Origin: a virus
Lineage: Duplodnaviria; Heunggongvirae; Uroviricota; Caudoviricetes
Reading direction: 5' to 3' (one strand)
Length of the DNA: 9,179 nt
IMG/VR virus record: IMGVR_UViG_2537562190_000019
This document shows, one piece after another, positions 3,181 through 9,179 of this stretch. The position numbers were made by a program, and so were the translations under genes. Position 1 is the first letter of the stretch; every line of letters starts with the position of its first letter. A model generated the notes under the pieces. The model worked only from the letters and a program-made list of their open reading frames with translations. It did no database searches and was not told the origin of the DNA.

Positions 3181-3228
3181 TTTTATTTTTACCCTCGTGT
3201 TTAAAAAGTTTTAGGTTGTGGTGCACCT

Positions 3229-3453
3229 CCTCTACCTCTCTACCCAATCATCTTTCAGGTCAGTAATGGCGCGGCTTTCAGATGGGTAGAGGGCTTTCGT
3301 GGCCCTCTACCCATCCTCTACCCGCTCCTCACAAACGACCTTAATCATGGTGGAGGGTGTAGAGGGCTTTTATTTGCCTTCTACCTGCCCCTCTACCCAC
3401 TTATCATATTGAATAATTTATATTTATTTTCTTTAGGTAGAAGAGGTAGAGGG
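3229..3453. repeat. Iteron-type replication origin: at least 6 direct CTCTACC(C) and 4 inverted GGTAGAG(GG) copies flanking an AT-rich stretch (about 3401-3435)
   Basis: Direct copies at 3229-3245 (x2), 3303-3323 (x2), 3378-3398 (x2); inverted copies at 3284-3293, 3359-3366, 3436-3453 (x2); GTAGAGGGCTTT recurs three times. It lies immediately 3' of the primase/helicase gene, the usual position of satellite and plasmid origins. Confidence 0.7.
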
Positions 3454-3466
3454 CTTTTGTCTAAAA

Positions 3467-5221
3467 TTATAAAAACGCGTCGCAATCATCAGTTGTAATT
3501 GCGTTGGTCTGCGTTACTCCCTTAACTCTCCGCGTAATATATTCATGTCCGTAAACTTTTGCCGCTGGCTTCATGGCCTTGCTGAACTCAGCCACGTTTA
3601 GCGGCTTGCTTCTTCCTGCGTATGCCATAAACGCCAGATAGACGCGGTAAAGGCTGTTCCTGGTCGTGTACTTCACTGAATCGCCACCGCCACCCATCAT
3701 CAGGCCGCGCGCTTCCTCCAGAAAATTCAGGAACTGGCAAAACTCAATAACCGGATCCGTCTGTTGCTTTATTGCCAGTGCTTCATCACCGTCGCGCTGT
3801 TCCAGGAGTAAAGCCCGTGCCTTTTCAGGGTCGGCAAAGTTCGCCAGTAATCGGCGGATAATCACAGGGATTTCAGCCGCGACCTTCTCCGGCAAATCCT
3901 TGTCCTTTTCTGCCTCGCTAACGATATTGTCAAAGCGAAAAATCACCCGACGGCGTGACACACCTCCGGCCCGCTCGGTGAATATCATCGGGTTGTTGTT
4001 GGTCGCCAGTACCACCGCCCTTATTACCGTCGTGAATCGCTTCTCATATTTCGGGTTAATTTCGACGGGGTCGCCGCCCGTGATTTTCTTGATGCCCGTT
4101 CCTTCGCCTGTATATTTCGGTTGGTCAGCCAGGACGATAAGACGACTCCCGACAACCTGCGCACGTCCACCAGCATCATCAAGCGATGTCATTTCAGCGC
4201 TTACCGTGTTCTGTTTCCCTGCCAGAAGGCTGGCTATGTGCGTGAATGTACTTTTACCGCTACCGCCGTCTCCGGTGGCCTCAATAAACATCTGCCAGTC
4301 GTACCGGTTCGCCATAATCATGTACAGCGCGGCACATATACGCATCATCTTGCGCGGGTCTTTTCCGGCTGCGTGATCAAGCCATTTGTGAAAGTTTGGC
4401 GCGTTGTCGCGAATGTTCTCCCCAGGTGCTGGTGGCGTGTACTCAATGCCGTTGTGCGTGGTGATCCAGTTCTCCGGCGTGTGCGGGGAAAATTCCCCCG
4501 TTTTCAGGTCAAGCGCACCATTGGCGAACGGCAGCAAATCGCCGGACGGCTCCCCCATTGGTTCGGCAATAACTTTTAACGCTTCAACGGCGTTATTGAT
4601 CACGCGTTTGCTGAAAGTGGCCCTGTGCTCTGAATAGATCGCCACCATTTCGCGGCTAAGTTCCATTGTGCTGACCGGACACCATAACCCGCCGCGCCAT
4701 ACGTGAACGATTTCACTTTCAGGATGTACGCAAACGCCATCAAAGCGATCGGAAAGCAGCTGAGCGCGTTCACTGTCCGCCATCTGCGAAAGTTGCGCCT
4801 TTTGCTTTACCGGAAGCTCAACGACCAGACCTTCAGAAAGATTCTGGCGCTCACGGGCAAGATATTCGCGCCAGTTCTCCACCTTCTGACCGTGCATTCC
4901 TTCGGGGTAAAAATTTGCATCCTGTACACCTGCCGCCGCCAGCTTCTGACCAATCTTTTTGGTCTCCACCAAGTCCAGTTCTCCTGCCTGGTACAGCCTT
5001 ACGCGTTTTTTTCCATCAGGAACAATTTGCAGTGCATCAAGTTCGGCAAGCTGATTTGGCCCAAGCCACACAGGAGGCACATTATCGCCGGATGCGGGGC
5101 CGTCCTGCTCCTGCCACTGTTTTGCATGTGCCCACGCATCACTACCCGCGAAAATAATCACCTCTGTGTCTTTGTGTTTTATTCCGCGTGGCTGTTTTTT
5201 TACGTTCGGTGCCAGTTTCAT
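3467..5221 (-). CDS. Replicative primase/helicase (P4-family primase C-terminal / D5-like SF3 NTPase domain)
   Basis: Walker A GDGGSGKST, Walker-B-like RLIVLADQ, and the P4-family primase C-terminal signature IKKITGGDPVEINPKYEKRFT (cf. LTGGD...F). ATGA overlap with the upstream 99-aa gene. Confidence 0.75.
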   Translation of the reverse strand: MKLAPNVKKQPRGIKHKDTEVIIFAGSDAWAHAKQWQEQDGPASGDNVPPVWLGPNQLAELDALQIVPDGKKRVRLYQAGELDLVETKKIGQKLAAAGVQDANFYPEGMHGQKVENWREYLARERQNLSEGLVVELPVKQKAQLSQMADSERAQLLSDRFDGVCVHPESEIVHVWRGGLWCPVSTMELSREMVAIYSEHRATFSKRVINNAVEALKVIAEPMGEPSGDLLPFANGALDLKTGEFSPHTPENWITTHNGIEYTPPAPGENIRDNAPNFHKWLDHAAGKDPRKMMRICAALYMIMANRYDWQMFIEATGDGGSGKSTFTHIASLLAGKQNTVSAEMTSLDDAGGRAQVVGSRLIVLADQPKYTGEGTGIKKITGGDPVEINPKYEKRFTTVIRAVVLATNNNPMIFTERAGGVSRRRVIFRFDNIVSEAEKDKDLPEKVAAEIPVIIRRLLANFADPEKARALLLEQRDGDEALAIKQQTDPVIEFCQFLNFLEEARGLMMGGGGDSVKYTTRNSLYRVYLAFMAYAGRSKPLNVAEFSKAMKPAAKVYGHEYITRRVKGVTQTNAITTDDCDAFL

Positions 5222-5949: not shown

Positions 5950-6135
5950 TTACTCCTCATCCTGAATACATGTCACTGTGTGGATAATTACGCCGGATAA
6001 ACCGGCTTTAGCTGATTTGTTAATTACTGTGCTGATTGCAGCCTGGACGTTTTCGGCCTTCACGTTCTGCGTGATGCCAACGGTATAGCCGCGCTTGTTA
6101 ACAGCACGGGAAAAAACGCGGAAGGTTTTAAGCAT
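5950..6135 (-). CDS. Hypothetical protein, 61 aa
   Basis: ATG 6135 with a G-rich Shine-Dalgarno; overlaps the end of the upstream 67-aa gene by 8 nt. Confidence 0.5.
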   Translation of the reverse strand: MLKTFRVFSRAVNKRGYTVGITQNVKAENVQAAISTVINKSAKAGLSGVIIHTVTCIQDEE

Positions 6136-6331
6136 GACGCACCCCCTGACGAATACGAGCGGCGAATACCATCACGCAGCCAGCCGGAGATTGCTGGCGC
6201 GCTTCCTGTTCGCTGGTGGCCTCGATGGTAATCACGCGCGGCTGTGCCGTGCTCAGGGCGATAAAACGCCAGATGTATTTATTCAGGTTGTGCGAGTCCC
6301 GCCCTTGCGGGTGTGTGGTATGATTTCTCAT
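6128..6331 (-). CDS. Small protein, 67 aa, possibly Icd-like (host cell division inhibitor-like); first gene of the leftward operon
   Basis: The C-terminal 67 codons of the 243-aa track ORF, starting at ATG 6331 with GAGGT 4 nt upstream. The rest of that track ORF runs through the divergent promoter and antisense to the regulator gene. The pattern IWRFIALS...ITIEATSEQEARQQ...VMVFAARI recalls Icd-like proteins of P4-type prophages; this is from memory, not a search. Confidence 0.45.
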   Translation of the reverse strand: MRNHTTHPQGRDSHNLNKYIWRFIALSTAQPRVITIEATSEQEARQQSPAGCVMVFAARIRQGVRHA

Positions 6332-6428
6332 AGCTACCTCGATACTTTCGCTATCGTTGGTTGTTAGACGCCCTGCATGTGTTGCGAGCACTGTAGGGCG
6401 TTGCTTAATTTGAGTGACAAAACTCAAA

Positions 6429-6509
6429 CTGTGCGCACAGATTAAAATCATGTGTGCGCACATGTCAATACTTAACATCTCATTTTTTTTGCTGTATTGT
6501 GTGCGCCCA
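6429..6509. promoter_or_regulatory. Divergent promoter/operator region with TGTGCGCACA palindromes
   Basis: Perfect palindromes CTGTGCGCACAG (6429-6440) and TGTGCGCACA (6453-6462), centres 23 bp apart; a degenerate third copy TGTGCGCCCA (6500-6509) about 28 bp before the regulator ATG. An interrupted inverted repeat ACGCCCT-N20-AGGGCGT lies at 6368-6401. Confidence 0.6.
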
Positions 6510-6536
6510 TAAAGTCCATTTAAGTGAGGTGCATCA

Positions 6537-6734
6537 ATGTCTAGCGGTAACACAAACAACAAATCAGCAAAGAAAAATATTCGATTCCCACATGAGCTTA
6601 TAGATGGGATTGATGCCAGCGTTGAACAAGAAAAATTAACTAATCCTAGTGCTAATTTTTCCGCATGGGTCTTAGATGCCTGTGGACGCAAATTAAAATA
6701 TGAACAGCGCCGCAAGGCCAAAGAGCAGGAATAG
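6537..6734 (+). CDS. Small DNA-binding regulator, 65 aa, putative ribbon-helix-helix (Arc/CopG-like); the only plus-strand gene
   Basis: GAGGTG 6 nt upstream of the ATG. KNIRFPHELIDGIDASV...NFSAWVLDACGRKL has an RHH-like strand-helix-helix pattern. Divergent from the operon with operators between, and followed by a clean intrinsic terminator. Confidence 0.6.
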   Translation: MSSGNTNNKSAKKNIRFPHELIDGIDASVEQEKLTNPSANFSAWVLDACGRKLKYEQRRKAKEQE

Positions 6735-6822
6735 TCCACCAGCAAGCCAGCACACTGAGCACATTGCCCACCAGACAGCAAATCGCTATGATGTTCTGGC
6801 TTATGTTTAGTGTTTTCCCATT

Positions 6823-6851
6823 GGCGACCGCCACAGGTCGCCTTTGTTTTA
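6823..6851 (+). terminator. Rho-independent terminator of the plus-strand regulator gene
   Basis: GGCGACC-GCCACA-GGTCGCC (7-bp GC-rich stem, 6-nt loop) followed by TTTGTTTTA. Confidence 0.7.
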
Positions 6852-6869
6852 TGTGTCATATGCTCCCCT

Positions 6870-7094
6870 TTACACTGCCTTACCTGAATTAATGCGATCC
6901 CGGCTTTTAACCCATTCCATAACCTCGGACAGCAGCCACCCTACAGAACGACCGCCCAGATTAAGACGTGACGGAAAGCGCCCTTTTTTCTCCAGTTCGT
7001 AGCGTGTAGTGCGGCACACTCCTGTTAACTTACGGCATTCATCCTCACGGATTACGCGATCTGATAGTGATTGAAATTGTGTATTTTGATTCAT
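6870..7094 (-). CDS. alpA: AlpA-family phage transcriptional regulator / excisionase-like protein, 74 aa
   Basis: LNLGGRSVGWLLSEVMEWVKSR matches the AlpA signature (...GxRSVGW...E...EW...) and the small HTH size fits. GAGGA lies 9 nt upstream of the ATG. Confidence 0.75.
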   Translation of the reverse strand: MNQNTQFQSLSDRVIREDECRKLTGVCRTTRYELEKKGRFPSRLNLGGRSVGWLLSEVMEWVKSRDRINSGKAV

Positions 7095-7129
7095 AAAAAA
7101 ACGTCCTCGAACGTTGCCGAACGAGGACG
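7095..7129 (-). terminator. Intrinsic-terminator-like hairpin plus U7 immediately 5' of the alpA start; its 3' arm contains the alpA Shine-Dalgarno
   Basis: On the mRNA strand: CGUCCUCG-(12-nt loop)-CGAGGACG-UUUUUUU-AUG. Perfect 8-bp GC-rich stem; 5' arm is CCUC (anti-SD), 3' arm is GAGGA (SD). Confidence 0.6.
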
Positions 7130-7156
7130 ATTCTAGGCGGTAGTAAAACGCCGTTT

Positions 7157-7189
7157 GTGTGATATCACACTACCAGCACGTGATATCAC
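7157..7189. promoter_or_regulatory. Paired palindromic operators GTGTGATATCACAC (7157-7170) and GTGATATCAC (7180-7189), centres 21 bp apart
   Basis: A perfect 14-bp palindrome and a perfect 10-bp palindrome two helical turns apart; the second overlaps the TGA stop of the 257-aa gene. A possible -10 (TAGAAT, minus strand about 7135-7130) lies just downstream. Confidence 0.55.
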
Positions 7190-7959
7190 TTTTTACGTTT
7201 TTGTTGAGATTCACGCCCCAAATACTTTTGCCATGTCTGCCAATGTGTTTTTGGAAATTCTATCCCTCTGGATGCAGCTATAGAATCAATTAAATCTGCT
7301 ATTTTAGGTAATGATTCCGTGTCCAGGTCTACATCACCCATTTCTGGAATAAGTTTAATTAAAGAGTAAATAACCTCATTCCTTTTTGACGATGCTTTTG
7401 GGCTATCTTCTGTTATCTTCGGGAAGTCTCCCGTATTTTTTATATTATCTAAATCACTAGCCATCACACACAAATAGTTAACATCAAATTCATAACCACC
7501 CTTACAAAAAACATACATGAGATTATCATCACCATACTTATTCGTAAGATGAGAACATTTTATATATTGTCTCATGCTAAATTCGACATCAGCAAAAACA
7601 TATGCCGGAGTATAATAAAACCCTGATAAGCTGCTAACATAATAACATTTGATAGAATTCCCTACAGGACCAATAATGGCACTATCTAAAAATTCAGTGT
7701 CACCAGTTAAACCAACTGTAAAATTACTTCCAAAAACAGCAGATTCATCATTGAAAGGATATTTTATTAATTCTTCCTCATTACAACCATTGATAAAATG
7801 ACATAATGAAAAATTGAATTTTTTAGCATCAATTTTTGGTATATATACAGAAATATTAAGAGCACCTATATATGCGTAATGATAAAGATCTTTTATTGCA
7901 CAGCCTAACTTTTCTGCCGCTTCAGGTAACGGATAATAGAGTCTTTTAGGTAATTTCAT
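7186..7959 (-). CDS. AT-rich hypothetical protein, 257 aa, unassigned family; N-terminal HTH-like segment plus a ~210-aa domain of unknown function; candidate accessory/defence cargo
   Basis: ATGA start/stop overlap with the integrase stop (7956-7959) and AGGTGG upstream. Composition is strikingly AT-rich (roughly one-third G+C by eye) against roughly half for flanking genes. N-terminal LPEAAEKLGCAIKDLYHYAYIGAL resembles excisionase/AlpA-type HTH. Confidence 0.7.
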   Translation of the reverse strand: MKLPKRLYYPLPEAAEKLGCAIKDLYHYAYIGALNISVYIPKIDAKKFNFSLCHFINGCNEEELIKYPFNDESAVFGSNFTVGLTGDTEFLDSAIIGPVGNSIKCYYVSSLSGFYYTPAYVFADVEFSMRQYIKCSHLTNKYGDDNLMYVFCKGGYEFDVNYLCVMASDLDNIKNTGDFPKITEDSPKASSKRNEVIYSLIKLIPEMGDVDLDTESLPKIADLIDSIAASRGIEFPKTHWQTWQKYLGRESQQKRKK

Positions 7960-9179
7960 TTGGCCACCTTCAGCATAACAATATTTTCATGATTTCCAGC
8001 CAGCACATCGAGACGCTCAACCCATAGATTAAGAGCGTCACGTTTTGCATCAAGATAACGGGAGTGATTATAGACTCGTTGCATTCCTGGCAACTGGTGC
8101 GCGGTAAGCTGCTCCACAACGTGCGGTTCCACGCCTAAATCGTTCAGCATCGTTGTAAACGTGTGCCGGATGTCGTGCAACGTCCAGGGGGCTTGATTAA
8201 TGCGTCTGTGTGCCGTTCTTCCGTACTCTGATACGGATGATTGCCCTTTCAGTTCTCCGAGCAATAATCCCGTGTGCCTGTTCTGCTCCACCAGCTTCAT
8301 GACAAACGGCAAGATCGCTTCCGGTATTGGCCTGAATATTGCTACCTTCGTTTTGCTGTGTTCTTTCGGCACGGTCCAGAGCATTTCTTTAAAATCCCAT
8401 TCCTGGACCTCAGAGCGTCTTAGCTCAGTGGTACGACATCCGAAGACAATCAGGAGGCGAATCAGGGCGCTGTAGTACGGTGGGTAAATTTTTTCATCAA
8501 GGGCGCGTAGTAATTCCCCAAGCTCCTTGTTTGTTAGTACGCGCTCGCTTATTTCTGCTTTTTTCCCAACATCACCGACAACCATATCATCAAGAACGTT
8601 GCTGATTGCGTATCGTCGTTTTCGGCAGTACTTAAGCGCCTGTTTGCATACCTGTAGCAAAAATCCGGCTGATACCGGATTACGCTTAGCAAGCTGGTCA
8701 AAACAGGCCAGCCAGTGGCGTAGCTCGCATTTTTCCAGTGGCATAGCGCCAATCTGGCTAATTATGTGTTTATTGATCCGGCTTTTCAGTGATTCGTAGT
8801 CAGTGCGCTTTTCCTTTGCGTACGATTCAAGCCAGTAAGTGAGCGCTTCCTTAACCGTCACGGGGGCTAACGCGTCCTGTACAGCATGATTAAGTTCATA
8901 GCGCGGATTTTTCCCCTCAGCCAGCCAGGCGCGACACTGTGCCGCTTTTTCCCTGGCAGCTTTCAGGCTCAGATCGGGATAATTGCCCAGCCTCAGACGT
9001 TCCGGTGATATCTGCCTACCAGTTCCGGCCCTGTAAGTGAAATACCAGGTTAACAGGCCATTGGTTGAATGCCTTACGCTAAGGTTGCCACCATCATTAA
9101 AAAAGGTGTTTTTTGTGGTTGGTGATCCGCTTAATTTTCGTAAAAGAGTGTCGCTAAGTCTATGAATTGCCCTGCTCAT
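7956..9179 (-). CDS. int: Tyrosine site-specific integrase, P4-like family, 407 aa
   Basis: N-terminal arm-binding-like region (TWYFTYRAGTGRQ...), catalytic signatures CRTTELRR (Arg), LHDIRHTF (HxxR) and VYNHSRYLD (His...Tyr nucleophile). The ORF starts at the last base of the window, so its promoter and any attL/tRNA lie outside. Confidence 0.85.
   Translation of the reverse strand: MSRAIHRLSDTLLRKLSGSPTTKNTFFNDGGNLSVRHSTNGLLTWYFTYRAGTGRQISPERLRLGNYPDLSLKAAREKAAQCRAWLAEGKNPRYELNHAVQDALAPVTVKEALTYWLESYAKEKRTDYESLKSRINKHIISQIGAMPLEKCELRHWLACFDQLAKRNPVSAGFLLQVCKQALKYCRKRRYAISNVLDDMVVGDVGKKAEISERVLTNKELGELLRALDEKIYPPYYSALIRLLIVFGCRTTELRRSEVQEWDFKEMLWTVPKEHSKTKVAIFRPIPEAILPFVMKLVEQNRHTGLLLGELKGQSSVSEYGRTAHRRINQAPWTLHDIRHTFTTMLNDLGVEPHVVEQLTAHQLPGMQRVYNHSRYLDAKRDALNLWVERLDVLAGNHENIVMLKVAK

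Follow-up and report, generated by a model that had tools for sequence, protein, structure and literature searches.

Three operator-like repeats between the icd-like gene and ylcI of an Escherichia coli phage satellite as probable binding sites of the island's own YlcI/YnfO-family protein

The DNA analysed here is a stretch of 9,179 bp (IMG/VR record IMGVR_UViG_2537562190_000019), called the window throughout, which on its gene content is an Escherichia coli phage satellite of the phage-inducible chromosomal island (PICI) type. A 205-bp gap in the window separates an icd-like gene, which opens a leftward operon (6128-6331, minus strand), from ylcI, a gene for a 65-aa protein of the YlcI/YnfO family (DUF3950; 6537-6734, plus strand; ribosome-binding site GAGG at 6526-6529), which is situated between alpA and the icd-like gene. 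Three short repeats in this gap, designated O1, O2 and O3, are probably the operators of the 65-aa protein, which would bind them as an Arc-like ribbon-helix-helix repressor encoded by the island itself and would repress transcription from the two divergent promoters that they overlap.

The core sequence TGTGCGCACA was found exactly at 6430-6439 and 6453-6462, with centres 23 bp apart, and with one mismatch, as TGTGCGCCCA, at 6500-6509; these were the only matches with at most one mismatch in the 9,179 bp, and all three fall in the gap. Shuffled sequences gave a mean of 0.47 such matches, and three matches were reached in 2 of 200 shuffles. With two mismatches allowed, 7 matches were found against 4.9 expected, an unremarkable count, so that the signal lies in the near-perfect copies clustered within 80 bp. 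At full length the sites are 12-mers with centre distances of 23 and 47 bp: O1 (CTGTGCGCACAG, 6429-6440) is a perfect 12-bp palindrome, O2 is GTGTGCGCACAT (6452-6463), and O3 (GTGTGCGCCCAT, 6499-6510) carries the one mismatch. The original prediction, made from the letters of the window, had placed three TGTGCGC-type sites between the 65-aa regulator and the leftward operon, and all three were recovered at the core positions given above. The range of 6368-6510 assigned to them was too wide, as operators were found only to the right of 6428, and the segment 6368-6428 holds two hairpins and no operator.

The sites are set on two back-to-back promoters. The ylcI promoter (P_R, plus strand) was called by a promoter scan, with TTAACA as its -35 element (6472-6477) and TATTGT as its -10 element (6495-6500) at a 17-nt spacer; O3 starts within this -10, overlapping its last 2 bp, and spans the predicted start point. 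The leftward promoter (P_L, minus strand) was read from the sequence and comprises a perfect TTGACA -35 (6463-6468) and a candidate -10, TAATCT (6439-6444), at an 18-nt spacer, with TTTAAT (6441-6446) at a 16-nt spacer as an alternative. O2 begins at the base that follows this TTGACA (6468-6463 in the leftward sense) and occupies the spacer beside the -35, and O1 comes next, overlapping the edge of the -10 and lying across the predicted start. Since the scan made no call on the minus strand, P_L rests on comparison with related islands. The corresponding region was collected from E. coli islands with the same flanks, from other Enterobacterales by way of the Icd-like protein, and from IMG/VR contigs by way of the YlcI family; after removal of duplicates 37 loci with a shared plan were obtained. 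The operator statistics exclude L014, L015, L027 and L052, which have small proteins of other types or a deletion. On the icd strand TTGAC(A/G), which reads GTCAA in complement, directly adjoins an operator copy in 31 of the 37 loci, and TAATCT is retained in L032 and L038 despite a differing spacer sequence. On the ylcI side a TAnnnT hexamer adjoins the proximal operator in at least 27 of the 37. Sites placed in the spacer and over the -10 and start point suit a block to RNA polymerase, and not activation, as judged from their position in the sequence.

The shared plan consists of a hairpin beside icd, a first repeat about 100-126 bp from the ylcI ATG (the equivalent of O1), a second repeat about 73-103 bp from it that adjoins TTGAC and, in most of the 37 loci, a third repeat 27-39 bp from it that adjoins TAnnnT (the equivalent of O3). 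Repeated sites over core elements of both the target promoter and the promoter of the small gene itself are kept in position across the 37 loci. The same layout with other repeats was found in E. coli islands L002-L007, in other Enterobacterales, in IMG/VR loci and in EcCICFT073, a model island. The repeat sequence varies by island (for example GTCAGCCAC, TGAAACACAC, GTGTTGAACAC, TGGATTCCA, GTGTTTAAACAC and GTGTGTATACAC); in L002 it is GTCAGCCAC, present three times, and in EcCICFT073 it is GTGTGGCCCAC, with sites that read GGTGTGGCCCAC twice and CTGTCCCCCACC once. Operators of the IRFP subfamily follow the form GTG-N6-CAC, with conserved ends and a variable centre, and those of the ARVP-like subfamily, which includes EcCICFT073, follow GTG-N5-CAC. 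Two variants of the layout were also observed. Islands of the GTGTTTAAACAC class (L030, L034, L042, L043 and L048) carry four operator copies, the extra one between the two promoters, and in the IMG/VR locus L027 the 23 bp between O1 and O2 are gone, which leaves one fused site and removes the -10 of P_L; this deletion looks like recombination between the two repeats.

The repeats change in concert with the adjacent small protein. Differences were found at 12% of positions among the sites of one locus versus 39% among the operator consensuses of different loci. Operator distance was correlated with the distance between YlcI N-terminal sequences (Mantel r=0.67, p=2e-4) and not with that of the adjacent upstream flank (Mantel r=-0.03, p=0.64). 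Four loci with different backbones (L032, L036, L038 and L039), in which YlcI is 67-78% identical to that of the window, keep the TGTGCGCACA core. Where 47 of the first 60 YlcI residues are identical (L032), 33 of 36 operator positions are kept versus 30 of 57 other intergenic positions, and where 43 of 60 are identical (L038) the corresponding figures are 32 of 36 and 34 of 57.

A single exchangeable cassette of 313 bp (6392-6704) takes in the operators, the two promoters and codons 1-56 of ylcI and is delimited by break points against the O157:H7 island L002: homology between the two islands ends at 6391 (89.5% identity to the left) and restarts at 6705 (99.0% to the right), and the only gene material inside these boundaries is ylcI. 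AlpA of L002 is 96% identical to that of the window and its operators are unrelated; in L055 Icd is 96% and AlpA 99% identical, YlcI is 37% identical and the operator set is different. AlpA and Icd were excluded as the specificity determinant because they are near-identical in islands with different operators. The sites co-vary with ylcI and with no other gene, as is seen alike in the Mantel tests, in the 96-99% identity of Icd and AlpA beside other operators, and in the cassette boundaries. The cassette of the window was found in 69 of 5426 complete E. coli genomes, of which 1392 match some part of 6100-7300, chiefly the icd-like gene. E. coli UMNF18 (NZ_AGTD01000001) carries this cassette at 1115748-1116056 and a different YlcI/operator cassette in a second island, L056; the pair fits, and does not prove, distinct immunity groups that keep co-resident islands from cross-regulation. 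A basic C-terminal tail of YlcI, RRQRRKAKEQE (6705-6734 in the window), is common to the otherwise unrelated cassettes of L002, L006, L007 and L008, and coincides with the right-hand recombination boundary.

The 65-aa protein belongs to Pfam PF13132 (DUF3950), which it matches over residues 22-53 with 28.3 bits against a cut-off of 25; it also matches phrog_949 over its full length (E=9e-28), and an identical protein is named "YlcI/YnfO family protein" in RefSeq. In all, 115 homologues of it were found. A broad profile covering all small-protein subtypes was compared with solved structures, and P22 Arc was the top match at a marginal E=0.077. The alignment is collinear (residues 9-54 against Arc 6-50) and lays NIRFP on NLRWP of Arc, and individual family members gave weak Pfam matches to the ribbon-helix-helix families Arc, HicB_lk_antitox and NikA-like. 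Predicted secondary structure was compatible with strand-helix-helix; a single-chain model (predicted local distance difference test score 75) places helices at 19-35 and 41-64 and, ahead of them, an extended coil at 13-18 (KNIRFP). In ribbon-helix-helix proteins the two-stranded ribbon of an obligate dimer enters the major groove, and alternating residues of the strand face the DNA. A test by position in the 26 loci of the IRFP subfamily associated operator similarity with residue identity at YlcI positions 12 and 14 (p ~0.001 each) and also with positions 3-5 of the N-terminal arm; helix A (19-33) showed no association, and R16 is invariant. Positions 12, 14 and 16 make up the i, i+2, i+4 pattern expected of a ribbon-helix-helix strand, and in the marginal profile alignment (E=0.077) they fall on Arc Q9, N11 and R13, which are the base-contacting residues of the Arc-operator structure. 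This suggests an Arc/MetJ-type ribbon-helix-helix fold for the 65-aa protein.

Binding of YlcI to O1-O3 is inferred from these observations, as are its fold, the direction in which it regulates and how many copies of it occupy a site, and the following scheme is proposed. P_L would drive the icd-like gene, the small open reading frames (ORFs) behind it and the primase gene, and P_R would drive ylcI. Occupancy of the perfect sites O1 and O2 should block RNA polymerase at P_L, because O2 fills the spacer beside the -35 and O1 covers the edge of the -10 and the start. O3, with its one mismatch, would be the weaker site and, lying over the -10 edge and start of P_R, would give negative autoregulation at a higher protein level. 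The operators and the N-terminal reading head of YlcI would then act as the single exchangeable specificity unit delimited above. An autoregulated repressor at a divergent promoter had already been proposed for this region, and the proposal is well supported by the comparison, in which the sites are fixed on two back-to-back promoters and, across 37 islands and EcCICFT073, change together with the small gene beside them. As one possibility for the lifting of repression, transcripts from alpA may read antisense through ylcI; such read-through is possible because the intervening hairpin (6823-6852), which is terminator-like 3' of ylcI on the plus strand, has a T-run on the ylcI strand only and none on the alpA strand.

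Several points weigh against this reading. The support consists of comparative sequence evidence, the Mantel and per-position tests ignore phylogeny, and the operators physically adjoin ylcI, so that co-inheritance alone would give some correlation. The -10 of P_L is weak or ambiguous in the window, and P_L was not called by the automatic promoter scan. As to the protein, the monomer model has a coil and not a strand at 13-18; the match of the broad profile to Arc is not statistically secure; the narrow DUF3950 alignment, run as a profile against solved structures, had no match, and hhalign of that alignment against Arc gave 3.5% probability; and a Foldseek search of the PDB with the monomer model found nothing. 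Because the structure search and the narrower profile gave nothing, the fold is put forward as suggested and not established. Apart from the weak Arc signal no similarity to characterised repressors was found. Finally, the region upstream of ylcI in the DLP12 prophage of E. coli K-12 was inspected and no GTG-N6-CAC operator triad was visible, which counts against extending the reading to all of DUF3950; operator function is for that reason not extended to the whole family, and prophage copies may have a different role.

Recognition of the repeats by a helper-phage or host protein, for instance as an induction switch, is an improbable alternative. Helper phages do induce such islands, but the repeats exist in many classes that switch with an adjacent island gene in one 313-bp cassette, and a host factor would predict a single conserved sequence. 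Such a sequence is in fact present elsewhere in the window, upstream of alpA, where two exact copies of GTGATATCAC, with 0.21 expected, lie at 7159-7168 and 7180-7189 at a distance of 21 bp (GTGATATCAC-N11-GTGATATCAC, 7159-7189). The original prediction had described two TGTG-ATAT-CACA palindromes here, which is accurate for the first copy; the second reads cGTGATATCACt.

It had also been proposed that both sets of sites are bound by a single regulator that tolerates different half-site spacings (YlcI or AlpA), or by two paralogues of different specificity, and that the replication operon is thereby coupled to alpA. Some features speak for this: both sets are 10-12-bp palindromes with GTG/CAC ends in pairs 21-23 bp apart, the YlcI family itself uses GTG-N6-CAC and GTG-N5-CAC in different subfamilies, and the proximal alpA site of the window also fits an asymmetric GTG-N6-CAC register. 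That register is lost elsewhere, as other islands read GGGTGATATCAC or AGGTGATATCAC at this site, and 4 of the 6 bases of the alpA-side centre differ from TGCGCA, a gap as large as those between specificity classes. No second YlcI-like ORF is present in the window. The pair is identical in L002, L055 and L056, which have three other YlcI/operator types, and unchanged in L054, where the annotation has no YlcI gene; L005, in which AlpA is 93% identical, lacks it. When IMG/VR was scanned for the pattern, the pair proved to be 100% conserved in 8 PICI-like loci (L061, L070, L079, L104, L111, L112, L115 and L117); L061 carries the orf257 of the window itself (orf257, a name given here, encodes a 257-aa protein, 7186-7959, minus strand), and in the other 7 the orf257 homologues are 30-52%, AlpA 50-99% and the integrase 52-69% identical. 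The two sets of sites were not seen to change together, and a common regulator is very unlikely.

The GTG/CAC ends that both sets have in common are generic to YlcI operators, which read GTG-N6-CAC or GTG-N5-CAC in the symmetric register, whereas the conserved core on the alpA side is GTG-N4-CAC. Because the pair is unchanged alongside other YlcI/operator types and in divergent islands, it is a separate, invariant switch of the orf257-alpA module; the orf257 product, AlpA or some factor of the host or helper could be its binder. Among the 8 loci the sequence separating the two sites varies, and the distal site always adjoins the stop codon of the orf257-family gene. If the start is placed from a conserved TAGAAT, the centres of the sites fall 40.5 and 61.5 bp upstream of it, which are typical positions for an activator. 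The orf257 family has a conserved N-terminal segment (RxYYPLxxAAxKLGCxxxDIxH), which looks like a helix-turn-helix, then a highly variable middle, and at the C terminus a conserved domain of about 70 aa. Neither orf257 nor its variants matched a Pfam family, and orf257 is unrelated to the DUF6387 proteins that take its position in other islands. Its product may be a regulator of the alpA promoter next to it. At 7095-7129 (minus strand) a GC-rich hairpin (CGTCCTCG..CGAGGACG) with U7 after it was observed, running directly into the alpA AUG, with a ribosome-binding GAGGA in its 3' arm, and is kept in L003 and L005 through compensatory changes. It could be a terminator of int-orf257 or a leader element of alpA, depending on the start point. 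AlpA of Pseudomonas is an antiterminator (PMC7969949), and this prompted consideration of the hairpin and U-run as a leader attenuator for a Q-like AlpA; with TAGAAT as the -10 the start falls inside the 5' arm, so that the hairpin is more simply read as the int-orf257 terminator. In L063, L065, L066 and about 40 similar IMG/VR loci (sample 3300045988), phage contigs of ~35-60 kb, 4-6 TGTGATATCA(C/T) repeats adjoin a TTGACA...TATAGT promoter; they share their core with the alpA-side sites and look like operators of an unrelated phage repressor.

Binding of AlpA to O1-O3, with activation or antitermination of the leftward operon, was considered because in EcCICFT073 AlpA is needed for induction and activates island genes as well as its own promoter (PMC6092414). 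The 96-99% identity of AlpA in L002 and L055, where the operators are unrelated to TGTGCGCACA, and the placement of the sites in the spacer and over the -10 and start of a promoter with a consensus -35, which points to occlusion rather than activation, leave this explanation highly improbable.

Just as little can be said for replication iterons or a packaging site. Iterons are typically short repeats at a spacing of about two turns, but the position of the TGTGCGCACA sites relative to the -35 and -10 hexamers is fixed in 37 loci, and the window has a separate iteron-like cluster of about 10 copies of GGTAGAGGG/CCCTCTACC in both orientations at 3225-3460, directly 3' of the primase gene. This cluster is probably the replication origin of the island; the origin of EcCICFT073 has been placed directly downstream of its primase gene (Mol Cell 2019 paper).

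The notion that the palindromes act as RNA hairpins at the 5' ends of both transcripts draws on the predicted transcription of O1 and O3 and is scarcely credible, since palindromes without a spacer give very short stems at best, several islands have direct or asymmetric repeats in place of palindromes (as in L002, with three copies of GTCAGCCAC), both transcripts are predicted to start downstream of O2, and the actual leader hairpins are located elsewhere. These are the two hairpins of 6368-6428 (minus strand). The first (6368-6401), in the leader between P_L and icd, is conserved, with compensatory changes at 10 of 12 pairs in 24 sequences, and is followed by a conserved TCTAACC and by no U-run on the mRNA strand. 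The second (6409-6428) is small and lies near the 5' end of the leftward transcript; analogous inverted repeats (CACCTTG..CAAGGTG) occur in other loci. Taken over its full length the leader shows no unusual stability (z = -1.5), and covariation supports the middle hairpin only. An Rfam scan that covered the entire window with E up to 1 returned chance matches to eukaryotic and viral families, none of them to the icd leader, and neither C4 (RF01695) nor isrK (RF01394) was matched in the window at this threshold.

The remaining gene content is that of a PICI in set and order: int, alpA, a D5_N/DUF5906 primase gene, terS and one capsid-like gene, short of a complete virion gene set, in a chromosomal element of about 9.2 kb. 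On the minus strand lie the tyrosine integrase gene (7956-9179), orf257, alpA (6870-7094; Phage_AlpA family, PF05930, E=1.9e-16) and the leftward operon, in which the icd-like gene (phrog_6196, E=1.6e-46; RefSeq "host cell division inhibitor Icd-like protein") is followed by several small ORFs, a gene for a DUF4222 protein and the primase gene (3467-5221); this strand also encodes the small terminase subunit and the one capsid-like protein. The window is 99.8% identical to an island of E. coli OkiPb01693 across the 1.2 kb compared (6100-7300); the annotated genes of that island agree with the ORFs of the window, and it is inserted between clpS and yljB/cspD. EcCICFT073, in its current RefSeq annotation, has the order int-alpA-ylcI-icd-primase, as in the window, and it is in relatives such as EcCICFT073 and EcCIEDL933 that helper-phage induction and transfer have been shown by experiment. 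Some RefSeq "Icd-like" coding sequences of 135-246 aa (L005 1368-1775, L006 1015-1755) cross the operator region and overlap ylcI, in the same frame as a 243-aa ORF of the window (6128-6859, minus strand). They look like over-extended gene calls, the conserved Icd-like protein being of 67 aa.

The closest known systems are immI of phage P22 in mechanism, Stl in role and the lambdoid immunity cassette in evolutionary behaviour. In P22 immI the ribbon-helix-helix repressors Arc and Mnt act at the divergent promoters Pant and Pmnt. P22 immI has a small protein (about 53-83 aa) with an N-terminal strand (NLRWP in Arc) followed by two helices, as is suggested for YlcI with its NIRFP. In both systems the operator lies within or across core elements of a promoter that has a second, divergent promoter opposite it, the P22 promoter being a strong one, and the P22 protein represses its own synthesis, as is predicted for YlcI. 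Arc differs in that a tetramer binds one 21-bp operator, whereas the island has three 12-bp sites 23 and 47 bp apart; in P22 the repressed gene is an antirepressor gene, whereas the island is a phage satellite in which the operon from icd to the primase would be repressed, and the sequence similarity is marginal (E=0.077).

In the Staphylococcus aureus pathogenicity islands (SaPIs) the Stl repressors are much larger than 65 aa, and no sequence relationship to them was found. The likeness is one of arrangement: in these integrated, helper-dependent islands the repressor gene (Stl/Rpr) is divergent from the replication operon (PMC6092414), just as ylcI is divergent from an operon with replication functions. 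Stl is known to release its island when a helper-phage protein binds it, and its deletion leads to uncontrolled island replication; Gram-negative PICIs differ from SaPIs in their additional need for the activator AlpA.

Lambdoid immunity regions (cI-OR-cro; imm434, imm21) share with the island three graded operators over two back-to-back promoters and the exchange of repressor and operators together as a mosaic cassette with distinct specificities; they differ in their helix-turn-helix repressor, where that of the island would be ribbon-helix-helix-like, and the island cassette has no Cro-like partner and no sign of RecA-dependent cleavage. Immunity in P1/P7 (immI: c4 RNA-icd-ant) and P4 (CI RNA) resembles the island in having an icd-like gene at the head of an operon under tight silencing, and C4/isrK RNA matches have been described in some Gram-negative PICIs (HE-PICI paper, PMC10111431); control in these phages is by RNA, whereas control in the island is apparently by protein, though a conserved leader hairpin is present. 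Like the 65-aa protein, YlcI (DLP12) and YnfO (Qin) of E. coli K-12 are DUF3950 proteins, and K-12 YlcI has the pattern RNIRFP...NFSAWV; its gene differs in being divergent from the terminase gene nohD across a 388-bp cos region (L059 4252-4834).

The paper that defined Gram-negative PICIs in 2018 called their global repressor "unclear" and the contrast with the repressor-based Gram-positive islands a mystery, and described AlpA as an activator switched on by the helper phage (PMC6092414). In the later open-access papers and bioRxiv preprints that were searched, no mention of a repressor of the island cycle was found and YlcI/YnfO were given no function; one later paper lists them only as "prophage-associated protein". 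A wider view, which we regard as possible but put forward tentatively, is that the YlcI/YnfO (DUF3950) proteins are overlooked master repressors of enterobacterial PICIs including EcCICFT073. They would silence the operon from icd to the primase through three operators, their exchangeable classes would constitute immunity groups, helper-triggered AlpA would override or shut off the repressor (for example by antisense transcription through ylcI), and the recognition code, positions 12 and 14 and the N-terminal arm against the central hexamer of GTG-N6-CAC, could be read and re-engineered.

A conserved small repressor with its own operators would be a concrete candidate for the missing repressor of Gram-negative PICIs, and one that is also present in the experimentally tractable EcCICFT073. 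If the proposal is true, it would assign a function to a DUF family that is present in E. coli K-12. The 37 islands provide many natural protein/operator pairs with a visible recognition code, and the proposal could account for the coexistence of several related islands in one genome with no cross-regulation between them.

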